Source of the DNA: a virus
Length of the DNA: 64,000 nucleotides
Virus record (IMG/VR): IMGVR_UViG_3300047548_000772
Span: 1-64,000 of that record
Strand: one strand, 5' to 3'
Made by a program: the position numbers and the translations under genes. Of this stretch, positions 9,683 through 55,820 are shown piece after piece (within the stretch, counting starts at the first letter, position 1; the number at the start of each line of letters is the position of its first letter). The notes beneath the pieces are model-generated. The model was not told the origin of the DNA. It searched no databases and saw only the letters and a program-made list of their open reading frames with translations.

Positions 9683-9711
9683 TTGACTAGAAATTGTGTT
9701 TTTTGTATAAT
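9683..9711 (+). promoter_or_regulatory. sigma70-type promoter
   Basis: TTGACT-N17-TATAAT. Confidence 0.85.
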
Positions 9712-10762: not shown

Positions 10763-10927
10763 GTGAAAACAGCACACGCTTGGCAATACAACGGTGTAGC
10801 CACTTGGACAGAACTGATTGAATGGTGTGGTGCTAACTTGTCGCCTCGCTGGCATACCAACTGCCGCGACACTTTTTACTTTTGCTGTGATGAGGACTAC
10901 GTTATATTTTTGTTGAGGTGGGCATGA
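10763..10927 (+). CDS. LRW-family short protein (not in ORF track)
   Basis: GTG start; IEWCGAN...FCCDEDYVIFLLRWA*. Confidence 0.75.
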   Translation: MKTAHAWQYNGVATWTELIEWCGANLSPRWHTNCRDTFYFCCDEDYVIFLLRWA

Positions 10928-11202
10928 AATTAATTAAACTAGACCGCAGACATCACGGCCACCGCACTTGGACTCATGCCTTGCAATTTACTCAGCAAGA
11001 ATGCCATGTTCGTCACCGCAAATTTGCTCCGTATGTACAAGCCTTTAGTGAAATATACGGTGACGAACACTGGTACGATCATGCTGCAAATTGGCGTGAG
11101 TCTCTTAAATGGAATGAACACTGGCGTTACGATCGGCATCGCCGCAGAATCTACTTTAAAGATCCCAGCATACTAACCTTTGTGGAGTTGAAAATATCAT
11201 GA
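10924..11202 (+). CDS. LRW-family short protein, divergent
   Basis: IYFKDPSILTFVELKIS*. Confidence 0.65.
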   Translation: MKLIKLDRRHHGHRTWTHALQFTQQECHVRHRKFAPYVQAFSEIYGDEHWYDHAANWRESLKWNEHWRYDRHRRRIYFKDPSILTFVELKIS

Positions 11203-11408
11203 CTATGAAATTACCTTGTGGTGGTGTTGCTTACTTTGATGAGGGTAGCGGAATTGGTTATCGTTGTGAGCATTGCATGGCTGTAGTAGGCAGCGTGGGT
11301 ATGCCCCGGTCATGTAAATCAGAAAAGGACAAGTATGACAAAGTGTTGCCTGCGTTAGGCAGCCGAGTTAAATGGAACTACGAAAAAGGATGTGAGGAAA
11401 CTGCATGA
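11199..11408 (+). CDS. small Cys-containing hypothetical protein
   Basis: CEHC plus two further Cys; ATGA coupled. Confidence 0.65.
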   Translation: MTMKLPCGGVAYFDEGSGIGYRCEHCMAVVGSVGMPRSCKSEKDKYDKVLPALGSRVKWNYEKGCEETA

Positions 11409-11590
11409 GATTCCGCTATAAGCTCGACCCCGAGTCGGATCCGCGAAACAATTTCTACAACATGTTTACATGGTGTCAGCAACGGTTTGGGCAGTCCGGG
11501 TTAAAGAATAGTGCATGGACCTATAAGTACGGAACTTGGCACTTTCGTCGGCGTGAAGATTACGTAATGTTTATCCTGAGGTGGATATGA
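11405..11590 (+). CDS. LRW-family short protein
   Basis: TWCQQRFG...HFRRREDYVMFILRWI*. Confidence 0.8.
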   Translation: MRFRYKLDPESDPRNNFYNMFTWCQQRFGQSGLKNSAWTYKYGTWHFRRREDYVMFILRWI

Positions 11591-11883
11591 AAATCGTAAA
11601 ATTAAATGGTAACTTTAACATTTACAAGACCCACGGGTTCGAAGTAGGTGTAAAGTTCGATCTTTGGGATACCAAAGCACGTAACTTTGAAGCAGTTGTA
11701 GCAGATTGCTTGGGCAAACGAGCCTGGGGCTGGAAATACTATCCTAGTCTGGAGGTCAGAGAAAACTGGGCCGGTGAGTTTGGCAAACGTGCTAGTGGAC
11801 AAACCACACCGTATTGGATTTACTTTCGCCGGGAAAGTATGCTAACATTAGTATTATTATCAATCAATCATCAAAAGGACTAA
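11587..11883 (+). CDS. LRW-family protein, divergent
   Basis: IYFRRESMLTLVLLS. Confidence 0.6.
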   Translation: MKIVKLNGNFNIYKTHGFEVGVKFDLWDTKARNFEAVVADCLGKRAWGWKYYPSLEVRENWAGEFGKRASGQTTPYWIYFRRESMLTLVLLSINHQKD

Positions 11884-11885
11884 AA

Positions 11886-12398
11886 ATGGTTACTATTAAA
11901 GACTTTATGGAATCGGTTAACTATCGCATTACCGAAGGCAGCGAATACTGCTGGTCGTGCTTTGGGCCATATGCTTACAGACTAGATTCTTGGAATGGCG
12001 AAACCGATGGCTATACTATTAGCCTACTATTTGATACACAATCGCAAGAAGTATATCAAGCCGAAGCATGGGATTATGCTCGTGAGCGTTACTATCGTTG
12101 GCAAAATCCTGCATACATTGATGCGCATGTTGCTGAAGCCAAGTCACGTGACATCGACCCCGACGAAGCCTGCGATGGTGCTAAGTTTATTGACTTGGAA
12201 GTCGCTGCTGACTTCTTAGACAAAGCACTTTCAATTGTACAAGGTGTAGACTACGATACTCGCGTACAAATTGAAGTTGAACTCGACGATGACGTTATCA
12301 ATGCTGCTATGCGTATTGCACACGAGCGTGATATTACTTTTAATCAACTTGTAGAACAAATTATTCAGGCTAAAATCAACGAATTAAAAGGTGTGTAG
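11886..12398 (+). CDS. hypothetical protein, possible C-terminal ribbon-helix-helix
   Basis: IEVELDDDVINAAMRIAHERDITFNQLVEQII. Confidence 0.65.
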   Translation: MVTIKDFMESVNYRITEGSEYCWSCFGPYAYRLDSWNGETDGYTISLLFDTQSQEVYQAEAWDYARERYYRWQNPAYIDAHVAEAKSRDIDPDEACDGAKFIDLEVAADFLDKALSIVQGVDYDTRVQIEVELDDDVINAAMRIAHERDITFNQLVEQIIQAKINELKGV

Positions 12399-12622
12399 TG
12401 TCATCTATCACCCAACAAGGTCCATTTTTCACTCCGTGGAAGCAGTGGTTTGCCTGGCGTCCTGTGCGCACACTTGGTGGTGAACTAGCGTGGATGCGTA
12501 AGATTTATCGTCGTGCTTACGAAAAGGACTATGTTACACACGACGACTGGACACGTTATCAATATGGTAGTTTGCTTGATGTAATCGCAAACCCAGATCG
12601 CCCACAGGCTTGGTGGTCATGA
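12398..12622 (+). CDS. hypothetical protein
   Basis: WKQWFAWRPV motif; coupled. Confidence 0.7.
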   Translation: MSSITQQGPFFTPWKQWFAWRPVRTLGGELAWMRKIYRRAYEKDYVTHDDWTRYQYGSLLDVIANPDRPQAWWS

Positions 12623-12936
12623 GCAAAACTGTACAAATACTGCAAGCAGCAAACCAAGCAGGCAAATCTTTTGGGTTCACTGCTGAACAACAGCAATATC
12701 TTAAAGATGCACTTGAACTGGCTACAATCAAAATGAATCAAAAATTCGAACTCATTGATCAGGGTCCTGTAGACGATGCTCCTTGGTACACAGTTAAAAT
12801 TCGCGACAAAGAAATTTGGTTTTGGCTTACACAGCAAGAAGGTCGGTGGCATCACTATATTTGTGAGCAAACCCGCATTCCACTAGTCGACATGGACGAG
12901 CCCACTTATCTAGCCTTGGTAATGCGTTGGTCATGA
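12619..12936 (+). CDS. LRW-family protein
   Basis: VDMDEPTYLALVMRWS*. Confidence 0.75.
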   Translation: MSKTVQILQAANQAGKSFGFTAEQQQYLKDALELATIKMNQKFELIDQGPVDDAPWYTVKIRDKEIWFWLTQQEGRWHHYICEQTRIPLVDMDEPTYLALVMRWS

Positions 12937-13124
12937 TTCAGAAAACTGCCCTAGCCATAGATCGGCCAACATTTTATATCGATCTGAAACCTGCCTACAG
13001 TATTACTGCGGATATGCAAAAATGGCTAGAGGAAGAAGAAGGTGCAGGCTATTCTTTGGGTGGATGGGGCATTTACTTCTACGATAGCAAAGATGCTACA
13101 ATGTTTGCGTTGAAATGGTTATGA
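12933..13124 (+). CDS. LRW-family short protein
   Basis: YFYDSKDATMFALKWL*. Confidence 0.82.
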   Translation: MIQKTALAIDRPTFYIDLKPAYSITADMQKWLEEEEGAGYSLGGWGIYFYDSKDATMFALKWL

Positions 13125-13390
13125 CAATTACTTATAAACGTCCTTTTAGTGATCGCAGTACTCGTGTGCCTATACATAAAGTTTACTACGGCGAGCCCGT
13201 GGTAGAAGCAGATCCATTCCTTGGAATTCCATTTAAACTCTACCCATCGCACGATGCAGCAGCGATCGAATGGTGTCAAGAAAACTGCAGGGCCGCTTGG
13301 TACAGAAGTCCCGGTTATTGTGATCAATGCTTTATTGAATTTGAAGACGATCAAGATGCTATGATGTTTTCTTTAAGGTGGAGCGAATGA
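13121..13390 (+). CDS. LRW-family short protein
   Basis: EWCQENC...EFEDDQDAMMFSLRWSE*. Confidence 0.82.
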   Translation: MTITYKRPFSDRSTRVPIHKVYYGEPVVEADPFLGIPFKLYPSHDAAAIEWCQENCRAAWYRSPGYCDQCFIEFEDDQDAMMFSLRWSE

Positions 13391-13596
13391 CTGGTTATAA
13401 CGAAGCGTTTCCTTATATTGTTGCTGATGACTCATGGCTTAGTTATGTAGATGTACAATGGCAAGATATGTGTAAATGGTGCGATACTAACCTGCCCGGT
13501 GAGTGGGAGTACTTCAATGGCGAGTATAGATTTGCTACAGAACGTGCTAAAATGTTATTTTTGTTGAGATGGAGCAATGGACAACTATCTTATTAA
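13387..13596 (+). CDS. LRW-family short protein
   Basis: KWCDTNL...RFATERAKMLFLLRWS. Confidence 0.8.
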   Translation: MTGYNEAFPYIVADDSWLSYVDVQWQDMCKWCDTNLPGEWEYFNGEYRFATERAKMLFLLRWSNGQLSY

Positions 13597-13819
13597 CTGT
13601 GTAAATGCAGTAGGCTGGACGAAATTCAGCCGGCATTGTGCTGACATTTACTCTAACAGCAAGATTGTATCAATTAATTCTGTTTACGATTATCAACTTG
13701 CACTACAGTTTGGCTTTGAATATCCCAGAGTGCGTGTTAAGAGTCCACGCACATATCCGCACTACCTACGGTTTCGTACAGAACAAGAATATCTAGCGTT
13801 TGCCTTGAGGTGGTCATGA
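13577..13819 (+). CDS. LRW-family short protein
   Basis: RFRTEQEYLAFALRWS*. Confidence 0.8.
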   Translation: MDNYLINCVNAVGWTKFSRHCADIYSNSKIVSINSVYDYQLALQFGFEYPRVRVKSPRTYPHYLRFRTEQEYLAFALRWS

Positions 13820-14031
13820 TCAAAGTTATTCTAAACGATTCAAAGATTCCCTACGCGAATGTCTATGCGCATTTTTCATGGATTGCTGGTTGGGCCAAAG
13901 CCAACTGCCCAAGTTATGTCACATACGAAACCATAGACGTTAGCGACTTTTCTGTGACCAATGATGTGTTAGCAGAATATACATTTGTTGATGAACGTGA
14001 TGCAACCTTGTTTAGGTTGAAATGGTCATGA
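13816..14031 (+). CDS. LRW-family short protein
   Basis: TFVDERDATLFRLKWS*. Confidence 0.82.
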   Translation: MIKVILNDSKIPYANVYAHFSWIAGWAKANCPSYVTYETIDVSDFSVTNDVLAEYTFVDERDATLFRLKWS

Positions 14032-14261
14032 TTACATTTAACGTTAGCGAGAACACAGCCTTTGATCGCATGTACCATCATTACTGGTTTGACTCTAAGT
14101 TCATTGAGCAGACTCCGCATTTGACTACGTCAGTGGTTGAAACCTGGATGGACTATACATTGGAAAACTATGGAATTCGCCCGCTGGGTCCAACGGGCAA
14201 TGGCATTTGGGAAGTTGTTGATGAACAAAAATACGCACTGATGCTACTAAAATGGACATAA
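14028..14261 (+). CDS. LRW-family short protein
   Basis: EVVDEQKYALMLLKWT*. Confidence 0.78.
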   Translation: MITFNVSENTAFDRMYHHYWFDSKFIEQTPHLTTSVVETWMDYTLENYGIRPLGPTGNGIWEVVDEQKYALMLLKWT

Positions 14262-14593
14262 AGATTCTATCACATAGAAAACCCAGCAATCGTTCAATGA
14301 TGATGTTTACCAACATCATTAGGTTCCAACCTCGGACCGACGACGATAAGTCTGATTACCCTTATGAGAATTCATTGAATCGTATTTGTTCGTGGATCTC
14401 ACTTAACTTCAAAGAAAACTTTGTTGTTTTAGAAAAAACCAGTAGTCGCATTGCTGGTGGTTGGGCTGACAATAAAAAAGGGTGGCAAGTTCAAAGGTAC
14501 GAAGTAGATCGACGAGAACACTCAACAACCGCAGTTTATGAACTACGCTGCATGGGGCCAGATGCTACACTATTCATGCTAAAGTGGGGCTAA
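14252..14593 (+). CDS. LRW-family protein
   Basis: GPDATLFMLKWG*; ATG formed by upstream K-W codons. Confidence 0.78.
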   Translation: MDIKILSHRKPSNRSMMMFTNIIRFQPRTDDDKSDYPYENSLNRICSWISLNFKENFVVLEKTSSRIAGGWADNKKGWQVQRYEVDRREHSTTAVYELRCMGPDATLFMLKWG

Positions 14594-15012
14594 TGAGTTT
14601 CAACGGAGCTGCATTTTTAAAGGATAAAGTAAGCATGGCCAAGTGGGAAATACATCGCCGATTCGGGACTGTTAAAGCCTTGTGGTGGAAGTTTATGCCC
14701 GGGGTAAAAATCACTGTTAAATGGCCCGCTGGGCTTGTAGAGATCGACGACTCTATGCCACAATGGGATTGGACTATTGGACCAGCGAAGTACGTAGTTG
14801 CCAGTGCCGACCCGAACGATCACTATAGGCCTTGGTTAGAGCAGAATGTAGGTCGTCAAGGTTGGGATTGGGACTGGCGATTAGGTCCAATCACTGGTGC
14901 ACAGGGTAGCGCAAACGGCCCGACTTATCTAACTGGAGACTATTTGGAGATCAAGTTTCGCAAAGCCAAGGCAGAATATGCTACAATGTTTAAACTAATA
15001 TGGCCCGACTAA
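14593..15012 (+). CDS. LRW-family protein
   Basis: WLEQNVG...EYATMFKLIWPD*. Confidence 0.75.
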   Translation: MSFNGAAFLKDKVSMAKWEIHRRFGTVKALWWKFMPGVKITVKWPAGLVEIDDSMPQWDWTIGPAKYVVASADPNDHYRPWLEQNVGRQGWDWDWRLGPITGAQGSANGPTYLTGDYLEIKFRKAKAEYATMFKLIWPD

Positions 15013-15013
15013 C

Positions 15014-15289
15014 ATGAATATACCTTTAGATGTTTTAGAATCCATGGAACAACAAGCAGCACAAAGTTTGCGTGAAAGCATTGACTTTGAAGTGTTGGCC
15101 GATGTGTTAGTTACTGGATGTGGATGGACCGATGTGGTCATTGATTTGATGTTTGCTGGCACAGATCGAGAAAAAGAAATAACACAATGGGCCGAGGATA
15201 ATTGTGCAGGACTACATAAACATCACTACGGACGTTGGGTATTTGAACTTGCCGCTGACGCTGTGCTGTTTAAACTAAAATGGGCTTAA
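15014..15289 (+). CDS. LRW-family protein
   Basis: VFELAADAVLFKLKWA*. Confidence 0.82.
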   Translation: MNIPLDVLESMEQQAAQSLRESIDFEVLADVLVTGCGWTDVVIDLMFAGTDREKEITQWAEDNCAGLHKHHYGRWVFELAADAVLFKLKWA

Positions 15290-15290
15290 T

Positions 15291-15590
15291 ATGCTGGTAT
15301 ATCGCAACGGACTACTACAATTACCTGATCACGAATATTCAGTATTTGATGGCGAAATTAGATTTAATCATGCCCTACAGTTAGGCGATCGCATACACGT
15401 TCAAGACGGCGTGTATCAACAAACGTTTTCCAGCGATGGACGAACTAATGTTTTTGTCGTTGACACCGAGGTTCAAGAAAACCTTGCTATTACCACGTTG
15501 TTAGAAAACTGTCTCAAGTACAAAGATAATCCTATGGTCATCGATGCACTAGAACGATTACAAGTAGCATTGTCATTGGTGCGAGAATGA
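15291..15590 (+). CDS. hypothetical protein
   Basis: ORF in array lacking the LRW motif. Confidence 0.7.
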   Translation: MLVYRNGLLQLPDHEYSVFDGEIRFNHALQLGDRIHVQDGVYQQTFSSDGRTNVFVVDTEVQENLAITTLLENCLKYKDNPMVIDALERLQVALSLVRE

Positions 15591-15799
15591 TCGAAATTAA
15601 GTTTGGCCGGGAGAGGTTTCACGAAGCCCAAGAAATGAGTCTGTGGCTCATTGATCATTATGGTCGTGGTATGTGGTATCGATATGCAATGGTCGAAAAT
15701 AACGATTGCCGGTGGGCACAGGAAAGCGCCTTTGGTATTACTTGGTTTTACTTTCGCAACCAAGAAGATGCTACAATGTTTGCATTGAAGTGGCAATGA
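15587..15799 (+). CDS. LRW-family short protein
   Basis: YFRNQEDATMFALKWQ*. Confidence 0.82.
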   Translation: MIEIKFGRERFHEAQEMSLWLIDHYGRGMWYRYAMVENNDCRWAQESAFGITWFYFRNQEDATMFALKWQ

Positions 15800-16194
15800 G
15801 CATTTGGGCAAAGATCAAAGATCGTTGGCTTACTTGGCGCACAGGCAAGGATGCTGAACAACGTGCATGGGACGCATGGTGCGATGTTAATGTGTGTCGC
15901 CGCGCCCATACAGTAGAAAATTACTACTACAAGTTTAAGCATATTATCGAAGTAGACCCAGCCAAAGTATTTGATACCACATGTCCATTTGGATGGACCT
16001 ATATCAAAGACTTTCAGCAATTTGCATTTCCAAACCGAGAACTAGGCAACAATACAATGTGCGAATGGTTTCGTTGTGTCAAGGACGACTACGATGGACA
16101 ATGGCATATCAATGAAATCGGCGGCTATGACCACCTTTTTGCTGCTACAAATTCCGACGCAGATGCCATAGTTATAGCGTTAAAATACACTTGA
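15796..16194 (+). CDS. LRW-family-like protein
   Basis: TNSDADAIVIALKYT*. Confidence 0.68.
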   Translation: MSIWAKIKDRWLTWRTGKDAEQRAWDAWCDVNVCRRAHTVENYYYKFKHIIEVDPAKVFDTTCPFGWTYIKDFQQFAFPNRELGNNTMCEWFRCVKDDYDGQWHINEIGGYDHLFAATNSDADAIVIALKYT

Positions 16195-16219
16195 CCAGAA
16201 ATACCTATTTTGCTATAAT
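16191..16219 (+). promoter_or_regulatory. sigma70-type promoter
   Basis: TTGACC-N17-TATAAT with extended -10 TG; -35 overlaps upstream TGA stop. Confidence 0.88.
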
Positions 16220-16225
16220 TATACT

Positions 16226-16453
16226 ATGGCTAAAATAGTACCCGTAAAAGAGTTAGAACCTGCATTTAGTAATGCCATGCGAGCGTTGATCGCCGAATGT
16301 GGTCCAGATATTATGACCATGGCTAATACAATGAACGCTTGGCAGAAACACTACGGGTCGTATATTTTACACGATGAAAATTTTGGTTGGGAAGTTGTAG
16401 CATTTAAATCAGAGCAAGATCAAGTTATGTTTATGTTAAAGTGGGGTAGTTAA
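16226..16453 (+). CDS. LRW-family short protein
   Basis: AFKSEQDQVMFMLKWGS*. Confidence 0.8.
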   Translation: MAKIVPVKELEPAFSNAMRALIAECGPDIMTMANTMNAWQKHYGSYILHDENFGWEVVAFKSEQDQVMFMLKWGS

Positions 16454-16843
16454 GTGAGCAAGGAAAAGAAACTACTGTTTAGCGTCACTGCTAAAGACTG
16501 CGAATGGTCCTATACCAAGGGCACAGGTGCAGGCGGGCAAAAGCGCAACAAAACCAGCTCGGCTGTTCACTGTATGCATCGCCCCAGTGGTGCTCGTGGC
16601 TATAGCGAAGCAAGCCGGAGCCAAGCAGACAACAAGCGTGATGCGTTTGTTAAGATGGCTAATACTGTGGAGTTTCGTCGCTGGAACCAACTCGAAGCTA
16701 TGAAGAAGATGGGGCAACTTGAAGAACTCGAGCGTAAGCTAGAGGAAGATATGAAGCCCTGGAACCTACGTTACGAAACTAAAGTAGATGGTGTTTGGAC
16801 AGAAACAGCACCCGAGGATATGAGCCGTGATGAAAGCAATTAA
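16454..16843 (+). CDS. class I release-factor-domain protein (GGQ peptidyl-tRNA hydrolase)
   Basis: GTGAGGQKRNKTSSAV...RSQADNK. Confidence 0.88.
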   Translation: MSKEKKLLFSVTAKDCEWSYTKGTGAGGQKRNKTSSAVHCMHRPSGARGYSEASRSQADNKRDAFVKMANTVEFRRWNQLEAMKKMGQLEELERKLEEDMKPWNLRYETKVDGVWTETAPEDMSRDESN

Positions 16844-17135
16844 AATTCGACCAAACGATCAACGAGCATTTACTCGCAAGGGTCGACTGACTCCGCAGTA
16901 TAACTTACCTTACCACGCTCGTGGACGGAGCACGTTTTACGATTCGTTGCCGGTTAATCAACGCACCTTGATTAAGATCTTCGGTTACCTACACGGTTAC
17001 GCAGGTCATGGTACTCGGGTTATGCGACAGCGTTGGCGACCAGCAGAACATCGATTCCAAATGCGCCATATGCCAGTTACCTCCCGAAGTACCAGTCAAT
17101 TTGTTAATGAATACACCGCACACAGATGGATGTAA
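16827..17135 (+). CDS. basic hypothetical protein
   Basis: Arg-rich ORF between coupled genes. Confidence 0.55.
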   Translation: MMKAIKIRPNDQRAFTRKGRLTPQYNLPYHARGRSTFYDSLPVNQRTLIKIFGYLHGYAGHGTRVMRQRWRPAEHRFQMRHMPVTSRSTSQFVNEYTAHRWM

Positions 17136-17136
17136 A

Positions 17137-17643
17137 ATGGACGCACTAAAAGATCCTAATTTGTCCGCAGACGAAATCAAACTGCTTAATGGATTACAAG
17201 GCATTCAACGCATTGTAATTAACTCGTGTCACGGCGGATTTGGTTTAAGTGAGGCCGCCGTTCGACGTTATTTAGAACTTCGAGGCATTGAAGTTTGGGT
17301 CGAACCACGCACAGAAACATATATGTCGTTGGGACCATTGTATTGGCTTGTGCCGCCGGGGCCGCACAGAGCAACATATGATCCAAGTCCCGAAGCATGG
17401 TCACGCATGACCATGGCCGAACGTCAAGCCAACAACAAAATACTAGACTCGCAGTTATTTTATGCACGTGATATTGCTCGCGACGATCCTTTGTTGGTGC
17501 GTGTCGTTGAAGAACTTGGTTCACAGTCTTATGGACGCCACGCTGAACTCAAAGTAGTAGATGTTCCGTCTGACGTTGAATGGACTATTGAAGAATACGA
17601 TGGCTCGGAGTGGGTGGCGGAGGTACACAGGACTTGGCAATGA
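17137..17643 (+). CDS. hypothetical phage protein
   Basis: IVINSCHGGFGLS...EYDGSEWV; start uncertain (17107 or 17137). Confidence 0.75.
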   Translation: MDALKDPNLSADEIKLLNGLQGIQRIVINSCHGGFGLSEAAVRRYLELRGIEVWVEPRTETYMSLGPLYWLVPPGPHRATYDPSPEAWSRMTMAERQANNKILDSQLFYARDIARDDPLLVRVVEELGSQSYGRHAELKVVDVPSDVEWTIEEYDGSEWVAEVHRTWQ

Positions 17644-17855
17644 TGGGAGAATTTTTCAAAATGGGCAATTATAGTTTTTGCAGCGACGAACGTGATATAC
17701 GCACTAGCAACAATTGGCTAGAAATTCGCAGTTGGTGCGCTGACAATCTCATTGCCGCAGAACAAATTATGACTGGACCGGGGATGCCTTTTAACGTTTG
17801 GCGGGTCAAAGACGAACATCAACGCACATGGTTTAAACTGCGATGGGAAATTTAG
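17640..17855 (+). CDS. LRW-family short protein
   Basis: SWCADN...RVKDEHQRTWFKLRWEI*. Confidence 0.78.
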   Translation: MMGEFFKMGNYSFCSDERDIRTSNNWLEIRSWCADNLIAAEQIMTGPGMPFNVWRVKDEHQRTWFKLRWEI

Positions 17856-18031
17856 ATTACCTTATTGAAAGTAGATACCGCTGTATCATTCCCACAGGGT
17901 TTGATGCTGCCGAAACACTAGGCAATTGGGCACATGGGTATCCGGAAATGTACACGGTTTACACAACGGGCACAATATCGTATAATAACGAACAAGCACT
18001 CAGTTGGTTTATTCTAAAATGGCCACAATAA
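17843..18031 (+). CDS. LRW-family short protein
   Basis: SYNNEQALSWFILKWPQ*. Confidence 0.75.
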   Translation: MGNLDYLIESRYRCIIPTGFDAAETLGNWAHGYPEMYTVYTTGTISYNNEQALSWFILKWPQ

Positions 18032-18249
18032 GCAATTACTATTCTGAAAATCTCAGTAATCATACTCGAGTAAAATTCCCAGAGTATAATCCAAGAAAGG
18101 TCTTGGAGTTTTTGCGTGAACACTTTGGCGATAACAATATCCATCAATCGGTTGAACAACGTCGTTGGGTTACTGTTGGGTATAGTGAATACATTTACTT
18201 TCGTGACGAGCGTGATGCTATGTGGTTTAAACTACGGTGGGACAAATGA
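18019..18249 (+). CDS. LRW-family short protein
   Basis: YFRDERDAMWFKLRWDK*. Confidence 0.82.
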   Translation: MATISNYYSENLSNHTRVKFPEYNPRKVLEFLREHFGDNNIHQSVEQRRWVTVGYSEYIYFRDERDAMWFKLRWDK

Positions 18250-18470
18250 TTGGCATTACTGTCCCGGAAAACATTGATATGTTTCGGCGTGCTTGGACCA
18301 CTGTGGCTGTGCCAAAGTATTGCCCAAACAGAGATACTAGTGTTGCAGAAAGCCAGCGCATATGGCTTGAGGAATTTGGGTGTAGAATGATCTTTGGCAA
18401 AACTGGCTTTTTAACAGCAGAGTTTGACAACGAAGCAGACTATACTGCATTTATATTGAGGTGGTCCTAG
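18246..18470 (+). CDS. LRW-family short protein
   Basis: EFDNEADYTAFILRWS*. Confidence 0.82.
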   Translation: MIGITVPENIDMFRRAWTTVAVPKYCPNRDTSVAESQRIWLEEFGCRMIFGKTGFLTAEFDNEADYTAFILRWS

Positions 18471-18727
18471 TGAGCGGAAACAGTCGACAACGTAGACGTA
18501 GTGCCCGTCACTGGCGGCATGTCTATCACATAGAAAATACCAGTCCGCTGGGTATCAAGGCTTGGGCCATTCGTCAGTGGTGTGAACAACAGTATGGTCA
18601 AAAGAATTTTGCTCGTACTTGGGCAATTCAAACACAGTCCGAAGAAAACTGGCCTACACAATTTTTTGTAGCATTTAACAAGGACAAAGATGCGGCTTGG
18701 TTCGTATCTAAATGGTTATCACAATGA
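18470..18727 (+). CDS. LRW-family short protein
   Basis: QWCEQQYG...AFNKDKDAAWFVSKWL. Confidence 0.75.
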   Translation: MSGNSRQRRRSARHWRHVYHIENTSPLGIKAWAIRQWCEQQYGQKNFARTWAIQTQSEENWPTQFFVAFNKDKDAAWFVSKWLSQ

Positions 18728-18981
18728 AACATCGCTCGCGCACAGTATTTAAAAGCACTAACTTTATTATCGACAAGCGCACAAATAGTAAGGGCAGAGT
18801 TTATTACGAGCTTAGTCTAAACTCCTACGGTAGCATTGCATGGGATCCCGAGCGGTTTGATCTAGTTCGTAATATCGTTGACCCCACACGCAACAGATCC
18901 GGGCACTTTGGCAGATCTTGGAAATATCCTAACCGTGCTGCTGCTGAACGAGACTTGATGTTATTGGAACTAATGTTATGA
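18724..18981 (+). CDS. hypothetical protein
   Basis: ATGA coupled in array. Confidence 0.65.
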   Translation: MKHRSRTVFKSTNFIIDKRTNSKGRVYYELSLNSYGSIAWDPERFDLVRNIVDPTRNRSGHFGRSWKYPNRAAAERDLMLLELML

Positions 18982-19217
18982 ACAACACGGTTAAGTTTAC
19001 TGCTATCCCTATCGATAAATGGTCATTGCAGGATCGTAAGGGGGCCATCACGTGGTTATTGGGATTATATGGGTTTGGTAACATCAAAACTTGGTACCTG
19101 GATACTCAACCAGCAGGGTGCGAAGATTTAATCATGCGCGACGATATCTATTTTATGTTTGCAGCAGCATTTGGAGAAGGTTATGGCACATCCAGAAAAT
19201 ACAATGAGAGCACTTAA
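18978..19217 (+). CDS. hypothetical protein, possibly a very divergent LRW-family member
   Basis: WLLGLYG...IMRDDIYFMFAAAF. Confidence 0.55.
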   Translation: MNNTVKFTAIPIDKWSLQDRKGAITWLLGLYGFGNIKTWYLDTQPAGCEDLIMRDDIYFMFAAAFGEGYGTSRKYNEST

Positions 19218-19392
19218 AGATCAGCCACTGTTTGTTGATCGCTGGCAATGTCGCTGGGGACTACACCGTTGGACTCGCTGGTCAGATGGTAAAAAGGATG
19301 CTAGTTCACTGCACTTTACACAGCACCGCACTTGTGTAGACTGTGGCCGTCAAGAAATAAAAAAACTACTAGGTGATTCGAGGCCATTTTAA
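19204..19392 (+). CDS. small Cys/His-containing protein
   Basis: CRWGLHRW...CVDCG. Confidence 0.6.
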   Translation: MRALKDQPLFVDRWQCRWGLHRWTRWSDGKKDASSLHFTQHRTCVDCGRQEIKKLLGDSRPF

Positions 19393-19393
19393 C

Positions 19394-19660
19394 ATGGGCT
19401 TACAAATTCCCCGTTATCCCGAGCCTATAGAGATGCGCACAGGCGAAGACTTTTTAAAGTCTTTTAGTTATTGGGCGCAACTTATTGGCGGACGTTTTAG
19501 CGATCGCACTGAACGCAATGAACTGGCCGGGCAGTGGTGTATGGAATACTTTGGCGTGCCCGATACCACTTGGGAAGGCGGCGTTTGGAACTTTAGCAAC
19601 GGTAAGTTTTATTTTAAAAACGAGTCAGACCGTAGCATGTTTGTGTTGAGGTGGTCGTGA
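19394..19660 (+). CDS. LRW-family short protein
   Basis: QWCMEYFG...YFKNESDRSMFVLRWS*. Confidence 0.82.
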   Translation: MGLQIPRYPEPIEMRTGEDFLKSFSYWAQLIGGRFSDRTERNELAGQWCMEYFGVPDTTWEGGVWNFSNGKFYFKNESDRSMFVLRWS

Positions 19661-19926
19661 TAATCGAAACAGATTCCGATCTATACTTTAACATACGCGG
19701 AAAATGGTTACGCGGAAACCCGCTACGTTGGCGCACTGAACTAACAGAGCAACGTGCCGCAGCATTTACCCAGTTTGTCAAAGATAACGGCGGTCAAATT
19801 AACGAGGACCGCATTGATAAAAATAAAATGTACGGCAGCGATTCTCTAGGAATAATCCCAGGCATTAGCACCATCGTGTTTAATGACGAAAAATTATACA
19901 CTATGTTTGTGTTGAGGTATGCATGA
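19657..19926 (+). CDS. LRW-family short protein
   Basis: VFNDEKLYTMFVLRYA*. Confidence 0.8.
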   Translation: MIIETDSDLYFNIRGKWLRGNPLRWRTELTEQRAAAFTQFVKDNGGQINEDRIDKNKMYGSDSLGIIPGISTIVFNDEKLYTMFVLRYA

Positions 19927-20132
19927 TAGACTTAGAATATAAGCGATTAGAAAAAGGTGGGGCCAACGGTGTTGACCTACAAGCACTAGGACTGTGGCTT
20001 GATGAAAATATGCCTAATCCTCCGTTGCCCGAAGAACAGCGTTGGACTATTGGTCGTAGTGCTGATGGACGTATTGGTATTAGGTTTGCCAATGATCACG
20101 ATGCAACGTTATTTTCATTGAGGTGGGGATGA
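19923..20132 (+). CDS. LRW-family short protein
   Basis: RFANDHDATLFSLRWG*. Confidence 0.82.
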   Translation: MIDLEYKRLEKGGANGVDLQALGLWLDENMPNPPLPEEQRWTIGRSADGRIGIRFANDHDATLFSLRWG

Positions 20133-20329
20133 TAGTTGATTTAAACAACTTACCTTATCGACAAGCCAGAGAACTAATCTTATGGTGCGTGGCCAACGAC
20201 ATTGACAAAGAACGTGCCGATAAACTATACTTTGCTTGGTACGAGCCTGCAGGTTCAAAGAAAGAATATACTTGGGAACTAGACATTCCCGAAGAATATC
20301 TAACTTACTTTATGTTGAAGTGGCAATGA
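20129..20329 (+). CDS. LRW-family short protein
   Basis: DIPEEYLTYFMLKWQ*. Confidence 0.78.
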   Translation: MIVDLNNLPYRQARELILWCVANDIDKERADKLYFAWYEPAGSKKEYTWELDIPEEYLTYFMLKWQ

Positions 20330-20580
20330 AACCTCCGTTTACAGCCGTTCGCAAAGTTTATCACGTTCCTACCAACGACTTCAACGACCTTGTCTGGGGG
20401 TTGTGGCACGAGGTTAAACGCATTTCTCATGGTAAAGTTGAAATATTAGGTGGCCCGGGCATGGACGAACTTGATTGGTTGTTCGAAAGTCAAGACGATG
20501 CCATATGGTTTATGTTAAAGTATGGTGGTAAGGATGTTACTAACGAATTTAGGGCATGGCAAAACAATGGGCTGGACTAA
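20326..20580 (+). CDS. LRW-family short protein
   Basis: LFESQDDAIWFMLKYG. Confidence 0.78.
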   Translation: MKPPFTAVRKVYHVPTNDFNDLVWGLWHEVKRISHGKVEILGGPGMDELDWLFESQDDAIWFMLKYGGKDVTNEFRAWQNNGLD

Positions 20581-20851
20581 CATACAATACGAAACAATTA
20601 ACTACGATCCAAACTTAAAGCCGACTCACAAAAGCATTTGGGACGGTGAGCAGTTTGTTACTCGCACAATTTATCACGTGCCTATTGTAATAGGCGATGC
20701 AAGCGAAAAAGCAAAGTGGCTAAACGAAACATTTGGACACGGACGTACCGGGCGTAACAGTTACGATGAAAATGGTTATTGGGCAGTTGGTCCTACCAGG
20801 ATCAGCATGGAAGAAAAAGTCTACATGATGTATCGACTGCGATGGGGCTAA
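20567..20851 (+). CDS. LRW-family short protein
   Basis: WLNETFG...SMEEKVYMMYRLRWG*. Confidence 0.78.
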   Translation: MGWTNIQYETINYDPNLKPTHKSIWDGEQFVTRTIYHVPIVIGDASEKAKWLNETFGHGRTGRNSYDENGYWAVGPTRISMEEKVYMMYRLRWG

Positions 20852-21117
20852 TTGAACTTCGTGAATGGCAATGGGAAATGATCCTTGCCCGGCTCAAAGA
20901 AGAATATGCTAGTACACCTAGTATGTTTTTAATGCGCGGCAAAATGCGCGACTGTTTGGGTTTTGTTCATCGCCATCATACACAATGGGTCAGCAAAGAA
21001 ACTCGAGGCTACTATCGCGAGTGTGTATGTATTGACTTTTATAACGCTGCTGCTGAATCAATGTTTCGACTAAAATATGCAGACATTCTTAACATGGAGA
21101 ACAAACACGGCTTATAG
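20842..21117 (+). CDS. LRW-family short protein
   Basis: DFYNAAAESMFRLKYA. Confidence 0.72.
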   Translation: MGLIELREWQWEMILARLKEEYASTPSMFLMRGKMRDCLGFVHRHHTQWVSKETRGYYRECVCIDFYNAAAESMFRLKYADILNMENKHGL

Positions 21118-21241: not shown

Positions 21242-22459
21242 ATGAAGAAGAGTCTAGTCGCTCTATCAATCGCAGCAATGTCAACTGCTGCTCTCGCTCA
21301 AAGCAACGTTACCATTTATGGTGTTGCAGACGTGTCAGCACAAGGCACCAACGTAACACAAGGTGTTGGCGCACCAGGCGGTACAGAAGGTGGCGCATTT
21401 AATCTAAAGTCAAACGACTCATTGCTTGGCTTCAAGGGCACCGAAGCTCTTGGCAACGGTAACAAGGCATTGTTCCAATTGGAATCGTATGTTAACGTTA
21501 CTGGCAACAACCAAGGTCCATCATATGGCAACGGCAACAACCTATTTGGTGGTATGCGTGATTCATTTGTTGGCTTCGGCAGCAAGTACGGTACAATCCA
21601 AGGTGGTTACTTCTCAACTCCATACCGTGCTAGCCTACTAACATTTGATGTATTCCCAGGCGACCGTAGTGACTCGGTACTAATCAACACTATGGGCAAG
21701 CAACGCATCGGTTATCGTGGTCTTACTGATCAAGCCAGCACTGGCTACGTCCAAGCCGACAACGCAGTTCGTGCAACTGGTCTACAATATGCTATGCCAA
21801 CTCTTTATGGCATCAATGGTTCGATCGCTTACACCGGTTCAAATAACAACGGCACAAGCAACCAAACCAATAACACAGTTGGTCTGAACACACAAACAAG
21901 CCTAGCAGGTCAAAACGCACTATCAATGAACTTGGGCTGGACTGGCTACGGTGTTAACATTGCTGGTGCTTTTCAACAAACCAAGCTAAACTCAACTGTC
22001 AATGCTGACAACGGCTTCACATCAACAACCCCATTTAGCGGTTACACCAGCTACATGGTCGGTGCACAGTACACAGGCCTACCGGGTCTAAAGGCAGCAG
22101 TTGCCTACAACCGCAACAGCCTTGGTACTAACAACTCATCAGACCTAGGCGCAAGCAAGGGCAGCAACAACCAAATCTACGTTGGTGCAAGCTATCGCTT
22201 TGGTAACAACGAGCCACGTGCTTCTTACATCAGCACCAGCGACACATCAGGCTTTAACGTTGGCCAAGATGGTGGTACACAGTGGAACCTAGGTTGGGCT
22301 TACTATCTAAGCAAGCGCACCAACGTTTACGGCATGGTCACCCAGTACAAGAACAACGCTAACGGCGTATGGGCACCATATCAAACTGGTACTAACCTAA
22401 TGCCAACTGGTGGTCAAATGCTAACCACATACGGTGTTGGTCTACGTACAAACTTCTAA
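21242..22459 (+). CDS. Gram-negative general porin (Betaproteobacteria-type)
   Basis: signal peptide, AQSNVTIYGVADV, GFKGTEALG, YYLSKRTNVY, C-terminal VGLRTNF. Confidence 0.93.
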   Translation: MKKSLVALSIAAMSTAALAQSNVTIYGVADVSAQGTNVTQGVGAPGGTEGGAFNLKSNDSLLGFKGTEALGNGNKALFQLESYVNVTGNNQGPSYGNGNNLFGGMRDSFVGFGSKYGTIQGGYFSTPYRASLLTFDVFPGDRSDSVLINTMGKQRIGYRGLTDQASTGYVQADNAVRATGLQYAMPTLYGINGSIAYTGSNNNGTSNQTNNTVGLNTQTSLAGQNALSMNLGWTGYGVNIAGAFQQTKLNSTVNADNGFTSTTPFSGYTSYMVGAQYTGLPGLKAAVAYNRNSLGTNNSSDLGASKGSNNQIYVGASYRFGNNEPRASYISTSDTSGFNVGQDGGTQWNLGWAYYLSKRTNVYGMVTQYKNNANGVWAPYQTGTNLMPTGGQMLTTYGVGLRTNF

Positions 22460-48713: not shown

Positions 48714-48950
48714 ATGATGTTCAACATCCGAGGTGACTATACTTCCGATGAGTTAGTTAACTGGTTAGAAAAACATATTGGTTATCGAACATTTGAGAAG
48801 CACTCATTAATACAAGGTCCCGGATGGTCAATATCACCAGCAAGTCTTCCAATGGAAGGGTTTGTTAGTGGTATCCGTATTCAGCACGAGTGGGTGGTCA
48901 GGATCGACGACGAAAAAACTGCTGTAATGTTTAAACTAAAATGGATGTAA
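48714..48950 (+). CDS. LRW-family short protein
   Basis: WLEKHIG...RIDDEKTAVMFKLKWM*. Confidence 0.8.
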   Translation: MMFNIRGDYTSDELVNWLEKHIGYRTFEKHSLIQGPGWSISPASLPMEGFVSGIRIQHEWVVRIDDEKTAVMFKLKWM

Positions 48951-54376: not shown

Positions 54377-55471
54377 ATGTCAGTTGAACATCGTACAGTT
54401 ACCGCACCAGAAGCCAAGAAGGCAATTCTTAAATGCTTTAATAAGAAGCGTCCTCTGTTCTTGTGGGGTCCTCCAGGTATCGGCAAGTCAGAAGTCGTTG
54501 CTGGTATCACAGAAGAAATGCAAGGTCTAATGATCGACCTTCGTTTGGGCCAAATGGACCCAACCGATATCCGTGGTATCCCGTTTTATAACAAAGAAAA
54601 AGGCGTTATGGATTGGGCTCCCCCAATCGATCTACCAGACGCCGAAACTGCTAGCCAGTACCCAGTTGTTGTTTTGTTCATGGACGAAATGAACTCGGCT
54701 GCACCTGCTGTTCAAGCTGCTGCATATCAACTAGTTCTTAACCGTCGAATCGGTAAGTACATCCTGCCAGACAATGTTGTTATGATCGCTGCTGGTAACC
54801 GCGAGTCAGACAAGGGTGTTACATATCGTATGCCAACTCCGCTGGCAAACCGTTTTGTTCACTTGGAAATGCGTGTTGATTTCCCAGCATGGCAAGAGTG
54901 GGCAGTTGGCAGCGGCATTCACAAGGACGTTGTTGGTTATCTAACCTTTGCCAAGCAGGACCTGTATGACTTTGATGCTAAGTCTGCATCGCGTTCGTTT
55001 GCTACACCGCGTTCGTGGACCTTTGTTAGCGAACTGCTAGAAGATGAAGACATTGACGATCGTACAGCCACTGACTTGATTTCAGGTGCTATCGGCGAAG
55101 GTCTTGCTGTCAAGTTCATGCAACACCGCAAGGTTGCCGGTAAGATGCCTAAGCCCGAAGACATCTTGTCAGGTAAGGTCAAGGATCTTAACATCAAAGA
55201 AGTTTCAGCAATGTACTCGCTGGTTATTTCCATGTGCTACGAACTGCGTGAAGCAGTCGAAAAGAAGATTCCCGAAAAGGACTTCCATGCAATGGCAGAT
55301 AACTTCTTCCGTTACATGATGGATAACTTTGAAACCGAACTGGTTGTTATGGGTGCTCGTATTGCCCTTACCACATACAACCTGCCCTTCCAACCAACGA
55401 AGTTGAAGAACTTCGACGAGTTCCACCAACGTTACGCCAAGTACATTCTACAGGCTACGCAAAACTCGTAA
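54377..55471 (+). CDS. MoxR-like AAA+ ATPase
   Basis: GPPGIGKS, LFMDEMN, IAAGN, LANRF. Confidence 0.93.
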   Translation: MSVEHRTVTAPEAKKAILKCFNKKRPLFLWGPPGIGKSEVVAGITEEMQGLMIDLRLGQMDPTDIRGIPFYNKEKGVMDWAPPIDLPDAETASQYPVVVLFMDEMNSAAPAVQAAAYQLVLNRRIGKYILPDNVVMIAAGNRESDKGVTYRMPTPLANRFVHLEMRVDFPAWQEWAVGSGIHKDVVGYLTFAKQDLYDFDAKSASRSFATPRSWTFVSELLEDEDIDDRTATDLISGAIGEGLAVKFMQHRKVAGKMPKPEDILSGKVKDLNIKEVSAMYSLVISMCYELREAVEKKIPEKDFHAMADNFFRYMMDNFETELVVMGARIALTTYNLPFQPTKLKNFDEFHQRYAKYILQATQNS

Positions 55472-55500
55472 CAGGTTAGGGGCTGTGTTCCGTTAAGGAC

Positions 55501-55535
55501 ATAGGGCTATGTTTGGTGCATAGCCCCTATTTTTT
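55501..55535 (+). terminator. probable intrinsic terminator
   Basis: GGGCTATG/CATAGCCC stem plus U tract. Confidence 0.65.
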
Positions 55536-55766
55536 ATGTCAACTACAGTTACAAAAACATACGATCCATATGTTTGGAAGAATGTTGCTAAAATACACAG
55601 CGACATGACTAGGGACTTTGGAAAGATTGGTGTCAAATGGTCTTTAAAGATCTTAACTCCAACAAGTTTTACATCGTCAGATCTACCTAGAACTTATGAA
55701 TATACGTTTAATGACCCGCACGATGCTATGATCTACGCTATTAAATACGCAGAACGCCAAGGTTGA
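55536..55766 (+). CDS. LRW-family short protein
   Basis: YTFNDPHDAMIYAIKYA. Confidence 0.7.
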   Translation: MSTTVTKTYDPYVWKNVAKIHSDMTRDFGKIGVKWSLKILTPTSFTSSDLPRTYEYTFNDPHDAMIYAIKYAERQG

Positions 55767-55791
55767 CCGGTAATTCGATATTTGCTATAAT
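55763..55791 (+). promoter_or_regulatory. sigma70-type promoter
   Basis: TTGACC-N17-TATAAT, extended -10. Confidence 0.88.
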
Positions 55792-55820
55792 ATTACATAA
55801 AGTTAAGAAATGGAGCATTT

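Follow-up and report, generated by a model that had tools for sequence, protein, structure and literature searches.

We describe a family of small genes in the 192-kb contig of an uncultured giant freshwater phage. The window, meaning the whole stretch of DNA that was analysed, covers 64,000 nucleotides of this contig, and most of the family lies in a single array. There, the genes are packed head to tail on one strand, near-gapless, and the encoded proteins share a C-terminal motif. The features are listed below with length and supporting E value.

9683-9711, +: sigma-70-like promoter candidate TTGACT-17-TATAAT, 11/12 consensus; in the gap before the gene block leading into the array
10763-10927, +: family member, 54 aa, near-minimal domain; HMM E 1e-12, outside-only HMM 5e-8
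10918-11202, +: doubtful member, 94 aa; E 0.89 (outside-only HMM), 25% identity to 11581-11883 (E 2e-5)
11405-11590, +: family member, 61 aa; E 3.8e-15
11581-11883, +: doubtful member, 100 aa; E 0.55, related to 10918-11202
12610-12936, +: family member, 108 aa; E 4.8e-9
12927-13124, +: family member, 65 aa; E 2.7e-11
13115-13390, +: family member, 91 aa, first structure model; E 5.3e-18
13378-13596, +: family member, 72 aa, 7-residue tail past LRW; E 7.1e-12
13577-13819, +: family member, 80 aa; E 7.1e-9
13810-14031, +: family member, 73 aa; HMM, L027 ortholog (46% over 81 aa)
14022-14261, +: family member, 79 aa; E 6.3e-9
14252-14593, +: family member, 113 aa; E 1.1e-9
14584-15012, +: member by orthology, 142 aa, end ...FKLIWPD; 46% over 153 aa to scored L039 10786-11268, A2 profile E 5.4e-4
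15014-15289, +: family member, 91 aa; E 9.1e-11
15587-15799, +: family member, 70 aa, high-confidence structure model; E 8.3e-13, pLDDT 94
15796-16194, +: family member, 132 aa, end LKYT, long insert between helix 1 and strand 2; E 6.2e-8, alignment
16191-16219, +: sigma-70-like promoter candidate TTGACC-17-TATAAT with TG, 11/12 consensus; in a 31-nt gap inside the array
16226-16453, +: family member, 75 aa; E 3.3e-12
17610-17855, +: family member, 81 aa; E 3.5e-12
17843-18031, +: family member, 62 aa; E 2.2e-8
18019-18249, +: family member, 76 aa, ATG within the K-W codons of the preceding gene; E 4.2e-14
18237-18470, +: family member, 77 aa; E 2.2e-11
18461-18727, +: family member, 88 aa, basic, pI 10.4; E 1.6e-13
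19373-19660, +: family member, 95 aa; E 2.1e-15
19651-19926, +: family member, 91 aa, end LRYA; E 6.5e-8
19923-20132, +: family member, 69 aa; E 3.5e-13
20123-20329, +: family member, 68 aa; E 1.1e-10
20326-20580, +: weak member, 84 aa, 17-residue tail past MLKY; E 0.007-0.013
20522-20851, +: family member, 109 aa; E 9.2e-11
20842-21117, +: member by orthology, 91 aa, ...FRLKY and a 12-residue tail; 30% over 109 aa to L027 5663-5980 (scored E 4e-7)
48714-48950, +: isolated family member, 78 aa; E 1.2e-7
55536-55766, +: doubtful member, 76 aa, between MoxR-type AAA and DUF2201/VWA genes; E 0.1-0.6
57105-57263, +: family member, 52 aa, minimal domain; E 4.1e-14
57263-57487, +: family member, 74 aa, GTG start overlapping the preceding TAG; E 3.8e-9, frame checked
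57478-57681, +: family member, 67 aa; HMM, nearest paralog 13115 (37.5%)
57672-57947, +: family member, 91 aa; E 1e-11
60978-61211, +: doubtful member, 77 aa, end ...FYLRW-stop; E 0.45, hhalign probability 12%, ~40% identical orthologs in L026, L027, and L031
61211-61486: doubtful member

Membership and counts

Membership is defined by six-frame profile searches of the 192-kb contig, which yield 27-29 members, all on the + strand. An iterated HMM, applied to every stop-to-stop frame of the contig, scores 29 frames at E <= 1.2e-7; the next best frame stands at 0.0068. These 29 all lie on the + strand inside the 64-kb window: 24 in 10763-20851 and five others at 48714, 57105, 57263, 57478, and 57672. 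The strict C-terminal pattern occurs in 29 ORFs on the + strand of the whole contig versus 5 on the - strand. An HMM made from other-sample proteins only recovers 24 members at E < 1e-3 and 30 at E < 1, and the genome profile search returns 29 matches with profile A1 and 27 with profile A2. Three further members rest on orthology or weak scores (14584-15012, 20842-21117, 20326-20580); the first two are included as full-length orthologs of proteins in other phages that are themselves scored. A further five or six candidates are doubtful (10918, 11581, 55536, 60978, 61211-61486); in G310, the closest relative, scored members occupy the place equivalent to 55536-55766. We put the array at 27 supported members and up to about 30, and the window at 32 to about 38. 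An earlier sequence-only reading had proposed ~29 and ~37, close to these profile-based figures, and the shared C-terminal motif it described is real by both HMM and strict-pattern counts, with every scored member on the + strand.

A predicted fold with a constant core

The domain is a stand-alone mini-domain of ~50 residues. The AlphaFold model of 15587-15799 (pLDDT 94.0, pTM 0.82) has the order b1-a1-b2-b3-a2, and the first model (13115-13390) concurs with it across the domain. In the predicted layout, strand 1 is followed by a long helix with W-C...F-G. A variable loop then leads to a hairpin that begins with W and closes with F-x-F, and the last element is the helix E-x-D-A-x-x-F-x-L-[RK]-W. 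The stop usually comes one residue on; of 149 outside proteins, 99 have a single residue past W. The conserved columns are W20, C21, G26, W43, F56, E59, D61, A62, F65, L67, R/K68, and W69; the other columns vary. Nearly all of the conserved ones are core positions with aromatic or aliphatic side chains, alongside a helix cap, although the polar E59, D61, and R/K68 could form a shared site instead of the cap. Loops and surface positions differ between members, as do N-terminal extensions and charge (pI 4.4-10.4). Tryptophan makes up 5.2% of their residues versus 1.6% in long ORFs, and no membrane segments are found in them, as no 19-residue window exceeds 1.45 (Kyte-Doolittle). Much of the sequence-only reading is upheld here: a single fold with constant core and variable surface agrees with one confident predicted fold, conserved core columns, and varying loops and charge; the central W-[CLA]...G helix recurs (W 98%, C 84%, G 84% in 139 sequences); and N-terminal parts show no relationship between paralogs.

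Neither sequence nor fold leads to a known family. Pfam-A, PHROGs v4, and NCBIfam hold no family match for the 26 members scanned, here and elsewhere, and none recurred; the best score, E 7.5e-4, is a Ty5 Gag match below its cut-off. A PDB sequence-profile search (hmmsearch, 139-sequence profile) found no match (best E 0.13, mTOR FRB, helix only), and the predicted fold has no specific match in the PDB. The Pfam and PDB searches, which cover some known anti-defence proteins, gave no match to these. The characterised domain that the sequence-only reading had considered as a contrary outcome did not emerge from Pfam-A, PHROGs, NCBIfam, or the PDB.

The gene joint as a translation signal

The end of one gene also serves the start of the next. 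The Leu-Arg-Trp codons read TTG-AGG-TGG, followed by xxA-TGA, so the preceding gene's end holds a Shine-Dalgarno sequence and the overlapping next start. This double use depends on the motif arginine being the rare codon AGG, found in 11 of 15 cases here versus 3.0% across the genome and 6.5% in the remainder of the same genes; in other phages it fills 17 of 25 motif arginine codons versus 23 of 234 in the comparison. The pattern TTGAGGTGGNNRTGA occurs 10 times versus 0.09 expected. R/K-W conservation may partly come from this nucleotide signal and not from the protein.

Such a joint suits the run to coupled polycistronic translation, and the array is arranged for it, from at most two or three promoters. 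The sequence-only reading placed sigma70 (early) promoters before the array, which the sequence bears out in part. In its favor, the two 11/12 sigma-70-like sites (9683-9711, 16191-16219) sit in the sole intergenic gaps; there is no overall enrichment, promoter-like sites being at chance (33 versus 29.4 +/- 5.2). Terminator-like sites are fewer than chance (8 versus 13.1 +/- 4.3).

Distribution and age of the paralogs

The family comprises 2065 representative clusters at E <= 1e-3; of the 150 best representatives, 149 are 50-161 aa long. Its atlas neighbours are 96-100% viral and without names. Searches of 301 bacterial genomes of the likely host's order gave no matches, and no members were found in T4, KVP40, P-SSM2, Syn9, or XacN1. 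The family looks phage-only and has no name in any library searched.

Five relatives, 95-100% complete, have 3-7 copies versus 27 here in the same search, a difference that marks this array as a small-domain, lineage-specific expansion of the jumbo-phage kind. L039, another phage contig, has ~20 members within 15.7 kb, L027 and L031 have 5 each, and the syntenic interval of L032 has none. The array's content and order, whose invariance would have counted against the sequence-only reading, differ greatly among relatives.

The copies look old and individually kept. The closest paralog pair within the genome is 37.5% identical (57478 versus 13115), and several paralogs, N-terminal parts included, have full-length orthologs 30-46% identical in distant phages. 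The "strongly diversified" repertoire of the sequence-only reading stands insofar as the copies are divergent and share one fold; a recent or fast-diversifying swarm does not. An old set of specialised proteins fits better than a hypervariable arms-race repertoire. Many counter-defence genes typically turn over rapidly; these old and individually conserved paralogs do not show this, a point against the binding-module reading proposed below.

Proposed role and alternatives

Our best guess is that the paralogs are soluble modules, expressed together, that bind targets in the host or the phage. We give slightly less than an even chance to this reading, in which an undescribed phage mini-protein family has expanded in one lineage to supply such modules. 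Each paralog would be cytoplasmic and soluble and would bind a target of its own, recognised by a variable face, loop, or N-terminal peptide, possibly via the edge left free in the three-stranded sheet. Targets would be host proteins, for takeover or counter-defence, or the machinery of the phage itself. Since the joint holds both stop and start signals, whole genes could be added, lost, or swapped without breaking expression, which would account for copy numbers from 0 to about 30 in related phages.

Alternatively, the members may serve phage assembly or folding as adaptors, decoys, or chaperone-like partners, possibly pairing via the free sheet edge. We regard this as unlikely. Coupled translation gives fixed ratios, and a designed beta-sheet heterodimer tops the fold rows (Z 6.3). 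In L039 474-818, the domain is preceded by a 43-residue copy of the capsid protein's most conserved N-terminal stretch (PF07068 positions 2-44, E 6e-9; 48% identical to this genome's capsid protein). However, no member here has such a piece, the sole PF07068 match in this genome being the true capsid gene (136892-137914 of the contig). Moreover, the array's surroundings are variable and non-structural, relatives lack the genes that flank it, and they get by on 3-7 copies or fewer.

It is improbable that the members are small nucleic-acid-binding regulators, with alpha/beta sandwiches of the KH, ACT, or RRM type that would act on RNA or DNA of phage or host, for example in the genome part rich in tRNA and ncRNA genes. 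The window does hold 33 tRNA and tmRNA genes, a glycine-rich turn follows helix 1, and the first model weakly resembles PCBP2 KH1 (Foldseek probability 0.82, E 0.25) and the FBP and KSRP KH domains (Z 5.8-5.9). With the better model, the top fold rows include no KH domain. However, every fold score is at background (Z <= 6.4). KH domains carry a conserved GXXG loop between two N-terminal helices; here GXXG is not conserved (G26 alone 84%, positions 28/29 Gly in 37%/28%) and is missing from most window members, which rejects a KH domain by motif. An ACT/ferredoxin-like beta-alpha-beta-beta-alpha-beta fold, whose four-stranded sheet includes a second beta-alpha-beta half, was also rejected (TyrA ACT Z 5.8 only): helix 2 is the last element of the model, a single residue separates it from the stop, and so there is no fourth strand. 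Finally, 20 of 28 members are acidic, and no surface position except R/K68 is conserved as basic.

Quite improbable, too, is that the array has mostly arisen as a side effect of cassettes that propagate themselves, with unequal or illegitimate recombination favored by the shared joint and with copies that have little individual function. A 15-nt joint kept across distant phages and a widely varying copy number and order are consistent with this, but each of the 29 scored copies has an unbroken frame and the complete core, and no fragments or frameshifted copies were seen among the copies. Paralogs this old (<= 37.5%), several with full-length orthologs in distant phages, indicate purifying selection on each.

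T4 IPI is a packaged internal protein injected with DNA; members are likewise small and numerous and one outside subfamily carries the capsid-protein piece, but a role of this type is very improbable given array genes far from the head genes and unrelated N-termini, the shortest members starting straight at strand 1, that share no targeting sequence.

A broader form of the binding-module reading is possible but doubtful: the LRW domain would be among the largest uncharacterised phage-only families and a plug-and-play cassette system of modules hitting different host factors or defences. If so, a universal 15-nt joint would combine fold end, ribosome-binding site, and next start; giant phages would collect, stack, and exchange dozens of modules, each disabling or redirecting a different host factor or defence; and some would display short mimic peptides, such as the capsid-protein piece of L039.

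Relation to known systems

Bacillus phage G carries ~35 zinc-ribbon copies, a lineage-specific expansion (Iyer et al. 2021, PMC7824862). As here, dozens of divergent copies of one small domain sit in a single giant genome and their function is guessed from context; unlike them, the array family is beta-alpha-beta-beta-alpha with no metal ligands, has no library name, and joins its genes by coding sequence that also holds the start signals of the gene that follows. The MoxR AAA and VWA pair assigned to jumbo-phage group 2.2 (PMC7824862) is also present in this phage.

PeSL (promoter-early stem-loop) cassettes bring about modular shuffling within the hyperplastic regions that T4-type phages carry (PMC2839356, PMC4122927). 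They resemble the joint as short conserved boundary sequences in variable regions, tied to gain, loss, or swap of small genes whose function is not known, and we infer recombination at the array joint. However, PeSLs are intergenic promoter-terminator motifs, whereas the array repeat lies within coding sequence, in the last fold codons, and gives translation instead of transcription signals. PeSL-type cassettes were rejected: the genes overlap without intergenic DNA, only two promoter-like sites occur in gaps, and terminator-like sites fall below chance as above. Known ATGA stop-start coupling uses a Shine-Dalgarno sequence within the preceding gene, and the junctions here likewise have ATGA or GTGA overlaps and GAGG five nucleotides upstream; in the array, the signal is fixed in the family's protein motif and kept by a rare codon across distant phages.

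The KH, ACT, RRM, and secretin ring-building sandwiches resemble the array fold in general arrangement, with two helices packed against a sheet of three strands (Z 5-6.4; rmsd ~2 A across 51-58 residues), but at scores no higher than background for models without a true match; the KH GXXG and the fourth strand of ACT and RRM are absent from the array fold.

Weak members also occur in Agrobacterium phage Atu_ph07, with per-genome E values of 1e-4 to 6e-3: the hypothetical proteins AUZ95037.1 and AUZ95034.1, unannotated and unstudied, show the same pattern, ...EEYCENKY..GW...VAFEDSDDALQFVLRY, but differ in weak scores, four scattered copies, and longer C-terminal tails. One of the two is a BFVD fold match with probability 1.00.

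Family membership and counts

Consecutive open frames of 54-140 aa in the run at 10763-21117 terminate in ...F-x-L-[KR]-W-x-stop. Across the whole contig, this strict end pattern closes 29 ORFs on the + strand versus 5 on the - strand. An array-seeded HMM, iterated on both strands across all stop-to-stop frames, converged on 29 frames at E <= 1.2e-7, with the next score at 0.0068; all 29 lie on the + strand and within the window. Because such an HMM is circular by construction, we rebuilt it using only proteins from other samples, minus four near-identical ones. At E < 1e-3 the outside-only HMM recovers 24 frames, a number that rises to 30 at E < 1, at unchanged positions, and an independent genome search gives 29 matches with A1 and 27 with A2, the two family profiles. 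The array of C-terminal-motif proteins described by the sequence-only reading is real: iterated HMM and genome search give 27-29 matches, and the outside-only HMM points to the same places. So is its central helix motif, in which W, C, and G are conserved in 98%, 84%, and 84% of 139 sequences.

The products of 14584-15012 and 20842-21117 are members through full-length orthology to scored members elsewhere. The remaining candidates are the following (single numbers are ORF starts):

20326-20580, weak member
10918, doubtful member
11581, doubtful member
55536, doubtful member
60978, doubtful member
61211-61486, doubtful member

Supported members in 10763-21117 number 27 (at most ~30), and the window total is 32 to ~38, so that the initial counts of 29 and 37 were fair. 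Positions 10763-11883 are likely an old duplication of a two-gene unit (10763 plus 10918, and 11405 plus 11581). The second genes of the two units are 25% identical (E 2e-5), and both end in ...IYF[KR]..S.LT.V.L.I, which may be a degenerate version of the family motif.

Predicted fold

The AlphaFold2 model of the 70-aa product of 15587-15799, built on an alignment of 139 family sequences, has a mean pLDDT of 94.0 and a pTM of 0.82. It runs from a strand (2-6) and a helix (8-25) through a variable loop to a hairpin (43-48/51-56) and a final helix (59-69); the same domain, at pLDDT 85-95, came out of a first model whose alignment contained paralogs alone. The two shortest members (52 and 54 aa) consist of the domain and nothing else. 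Conserved alignment columns are W20, C21, G26, W43, F56, E59, D61, A62, F65, L67, R/K68, and W69, together with alternating hydrophobic positions in strands 1 and 3; the remaining columns vary, as does the length of the loop between helix 1 and strand 2. Tryptophan makes up 5.2% of members versus 1.6% of long ORFs. Acidic members account for 20 of 28 (pI range of all members 4.4-10.4), and no member carries a membrane-like segment. Sequence analysis and the model together predict soluble proteins of one confident fold, with a conserved hydrophobic core and a variable exterior, in agreement with the single fold and constant scaffold first proposed. N-terminal extensions of 0 to ~90 residues resemble neither one another nor other ORFs of the contig, and the N-terminal parts are unrelated, as claimed.

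Window members and typical outside members have no match in Pfam, PHROGs, or NCBIfam. The PDB holds no sequence relative (best E 0.13), and Foldseek against the PDB gives no match below E 0.25. Top hits of an exhaustive structure aligner (a designed sheet heterodimer, Pol II N-domain, ACT, KH, RRM, and secretin ring domains) reach Z 6.3-6.4, which is background by the aligner's own calibration, and a PDB fold relative was rejected on this ground. KH domains differ further in their GXXG loop, which is not conserved in the family, and ACT and RRM domains in a fourth strand that is absent from the predicted fold. In BFVD, uncharacterised proteins assigned to "uncultured Caudovirales phage" and to Agrobacterium phage Atu_ph07 match the fold with probabilities up to 1.00. 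Structure prediction and Foldseek together give a common fold without a characterised-domain match.

A translation signal within the protein motif

Array genes abut or overlap, and their most frequent end is TTG AGG TGG xxA TGA, a joint that encodes the L-R-W of the motif and overlaps the next start. The motif arginine is encoded by AGG in 11 of 15 cases, compared with 3.0% of arginine codons within long ORFs and 6.5% in the rest of the same genes; in the arrays of other phages the figures are 17 of 25 versus 23 of 234 elsewhere. TTGAGGTGGNNRTGA occurs 10 times, always at + strand gene ends, against an expected 0.09. GAGG sits five nt upstream of the overlapping ATG or GTG. By sequence, then, the last turn of the predicted fold also provides the ribosome-binding site and the start of the gene that follows.

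The members were also said to follow sigma70 promoters. Just two strong sigma-70-like sites fall within the rare gaps (9683-9711 and 16191-16219), and over the region as a whole promoter-like sites are no more frequent than chance predicts, so that the claim is upheld only in part. Early expression is plausible.

Age of the copies

Within-genome BLASTP links no more than three pairs of paralogs at E < 1e-3, the best 37.5% identical and 44 kb apart, which rules out recent tandem duplication. Single paralogs have closer full-length partners across genomes than within their own. Among comparison contigs, the product of 14584 is 46% identical over 153 aa to a protein of L039, that of 13810 46% over 81 aa to one of L027, and that of 13115 34% over 108 aa to one of L039; 60978 has partners of ~40% identity in L026, L027, and L031, and 20842 and 15014 have partners in L027 (~30% over 90-109 aa). 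Paralog order differs among phages. With closer partners in other genomes, the paralogs look old and individually conserved, N-terminal parts included. Of the diversified repertoire first envisaged, divergence on a constant fold stands, and fast diversification is weakened by these old paralogs, which would also fit a group of specialised binding proteins.

Arrays in other phages

Using conserved neighbour genes as handles in IMG/VR and metagenome contigs, we located small clusters in L003 (3 plus 1 members), L016 (3), L026 (4), L027 (5), and L031 (5), and 19-20 members within 15.7 kb of the unrelated contig L039. In L032, whose porin is 77% identical to that of the window, the interval from the homolog of 17008-17643 to the porin holds quite different genes and no member. 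Five near-complete relatives (95-100%, 328-345 kb), located through the DUF2201 gene at 58-79% identity, have 3-7 scattered matches versus 27 here in the same search, the latter from a half-genome (contig 55% complete). The array-flanking genes have no homolog in three near-complete relatives, so the gene-by-gene comparison of the array covers L003, L027, L031, L032, L033, and L039. Given these counts and the absent flanking genes, the array is a lineage-specific expansion within a variable region. Array content is far from invariant among relatives, as the member-free L032 interval also illustrates. A rival explanation for the array is neutral amplification of the cassette.

Other genes lie within the array or near members:

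11199-11408, inside the array, small ORF with paired CxxC motifs, zinc-ribbon-like by eye
19159-19392, inside the array, small ORF of the same description
11883-12398, larger in-array gene
17152-17643, larger in-array gene, phrog_16527
54377-57101, MoxR-type AAA ATPase and DUF2201_N/VWA gene pair

The two small ORFs have no family match; that at 19159-19392 has a 40% identical homolog beside the L039 array. Searches with the two larger genes returned no informative family, only phrog_16527 and weak RHH-like matches; both genes recur beside family arrays in L027, L031, and L033, and also in the member-less L032. Relatives of the VWA protein occur on 174 IMG/VR stretches (the best 80 of the 174 are 51-79% identical), which makes it a good marker for relatives of this phage group. 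A member lies downstream of the DUF2201 gene in the window and in contig L023. A link between the family and this gene pair was rejected: among 72 IMG/VR relatives with sufficient flanking sequence, a member directly follows the DUF2201 gene in none and lies within 3 kb of it in just 9.

Family size and range

Counting across phages, the family HMM finds members in further contigs and, in an A1 HMMER pass over 1.84 billion representatives, 2065 proteins at E <= 1e-3. Among the best 150 of these, 149 are 50-161 aa long, and five of those inspected are tandem two-domain proteins. The sole long match, the top representative P0001 (a 1176-aa ResIII/DEAD helicase), is not a member, since it aligns with helix 1 of the family only, through a repeated WCNQNFG. 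The C-terminal half of P0001 consists of seven ~84-aa repeats, each beginning ...LEIQNWCNQNFGDKEIW, that resemble family helix 1 only. Fusion to known domains was set aside, none having been found among the longer proteins searched, which is weak evidence.

Atlas neighbours are unnamed clusters with a viral share of 96-100%, and A2 has no match in 301 bacterial genomes from the order to which the Rhodoferax MAG discussed below belongs; the family looks confined to phages. Nor does A2 match T4, P-SSM2, Syn9, KVP40, or XacN1. Atu_ph07 gives four weak A1 matches, two of them convincing on reading (AUZ95037.1 and AUZ95034.1, both annotated hypothetical). Since this phage of Agrobacterium tumefaciens C58 is cultured and bears distant members, experiments are possible. 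Word-based homolog searches with the short, divergent members returned almost nothing, and a tblastn search of 50,697 phage records with one member found no homolog.

Possible functions

Many host-takeover and counter-defence activities come from small phage proteins, yet most such proteins fall outside any family, which leaves no way to prioritise them. In this case a single scaffold with a confident fold prediction accounts for ~30 genes of one phage and >2000 public sequence clusters, so that one structure and a few binding screens could annotate much viral dark matter.

The locus combines coupled co-expression, a dynamic array, and old, conserved paralogs. We infer, at a little under even odds, that every copy acts as a small cytoplasmic binding module and has a separate target, either in the host or among the phage's own machinery. 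A portable joint would then let phages stack and exchange such modules. The rivals are that members bind nucleic acids, that they serve assembly or self-association, or that they are packaged internal proteins.

A lead for the idea of a displayed peptide on a constant scaffold comes from a 115-aa outside member (L039 474-818; JGI 3300044266, Ga0466938_000047). Its first 43 residues copy the most conserved N-terminal part of the T4-type major capsid protein (PF07068 positions 2-44, E 6e-9; 48% identical to the capsid protein of this contig). In an Atlas cluster of 113 members of ~114 aa, 13% bear a PF07068 match; no member in the present genome carries such a piece. According to a review (PMC3014915), conservation in T4 gp23 is highest in the Gol region, which binds EF-Tu; the L039 piece may correspond to that region.

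Jumbo phages are already known to carry many copies of one small domain, as with the zinc ribbons of phage G (PMC7824862); the array is a similar expansion of a different fold family. Likewise, the PeSL boundary motifs are known to promote shuffling within variable regions of T4-type phages (PMC2839356, PMC4122927), and the joint differs from these boundary signals in being written within a conserved protein motif. What is new is a fold family nameless in all searched libraries, its size, and a boundary signal inside a protein motif. The joint clearly exemplifies how a protein motif can become fixed along with a translation signal, and offers a testable route for the growth of giant-phage variable regions.

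The phage and its likely host

The contig, an IMG/VR virus record of 192,074 bp (GC 41%) whose first 64 kb form the window, is 55% complete by CheckV, which implies a genome of ~350 kb. A megablast comparison of the region with cultured phages returned no DNA-level match. Beyond the window it encodes a T4-type major capsid protein (PF07068, E 8e-101); other genes include SAM synthetase, radical SAM enzymes, the MoxR-type AAA and DUF2201/VWA pair, 32 tRNAs, and one tmRNA. Two further genes lie in or beside the array:

16454-16843, inside the array, 129-aa RF-1-domain protein of ArfB / peptidyl-tRNA hydrolase type (PF00472, E 2e-14)
21242-22459, immediately after the array, Porin_4 outer-membrane porin with signal peptide

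The RF-1-domain protein, with homologs 51-74% identical on 22 IMG/VR contigs, gives the phage, together with the tmRNA and 32 tRNAs, its own ribosome-rescue kit. Copies of the porin 68-77% identical occur on three phage contigs, and its bacterial relatives offer a clue to the host. Since the nearest of these (48-50% identity) are in a Rhodoferax MAG and an unclassified Pseudomonadota MAG, the host is likely a freshwater member of the Burkholderiales. Outside the window, contig positions 88825-102618 on the - strand hold a single open frame of 4598 aa.
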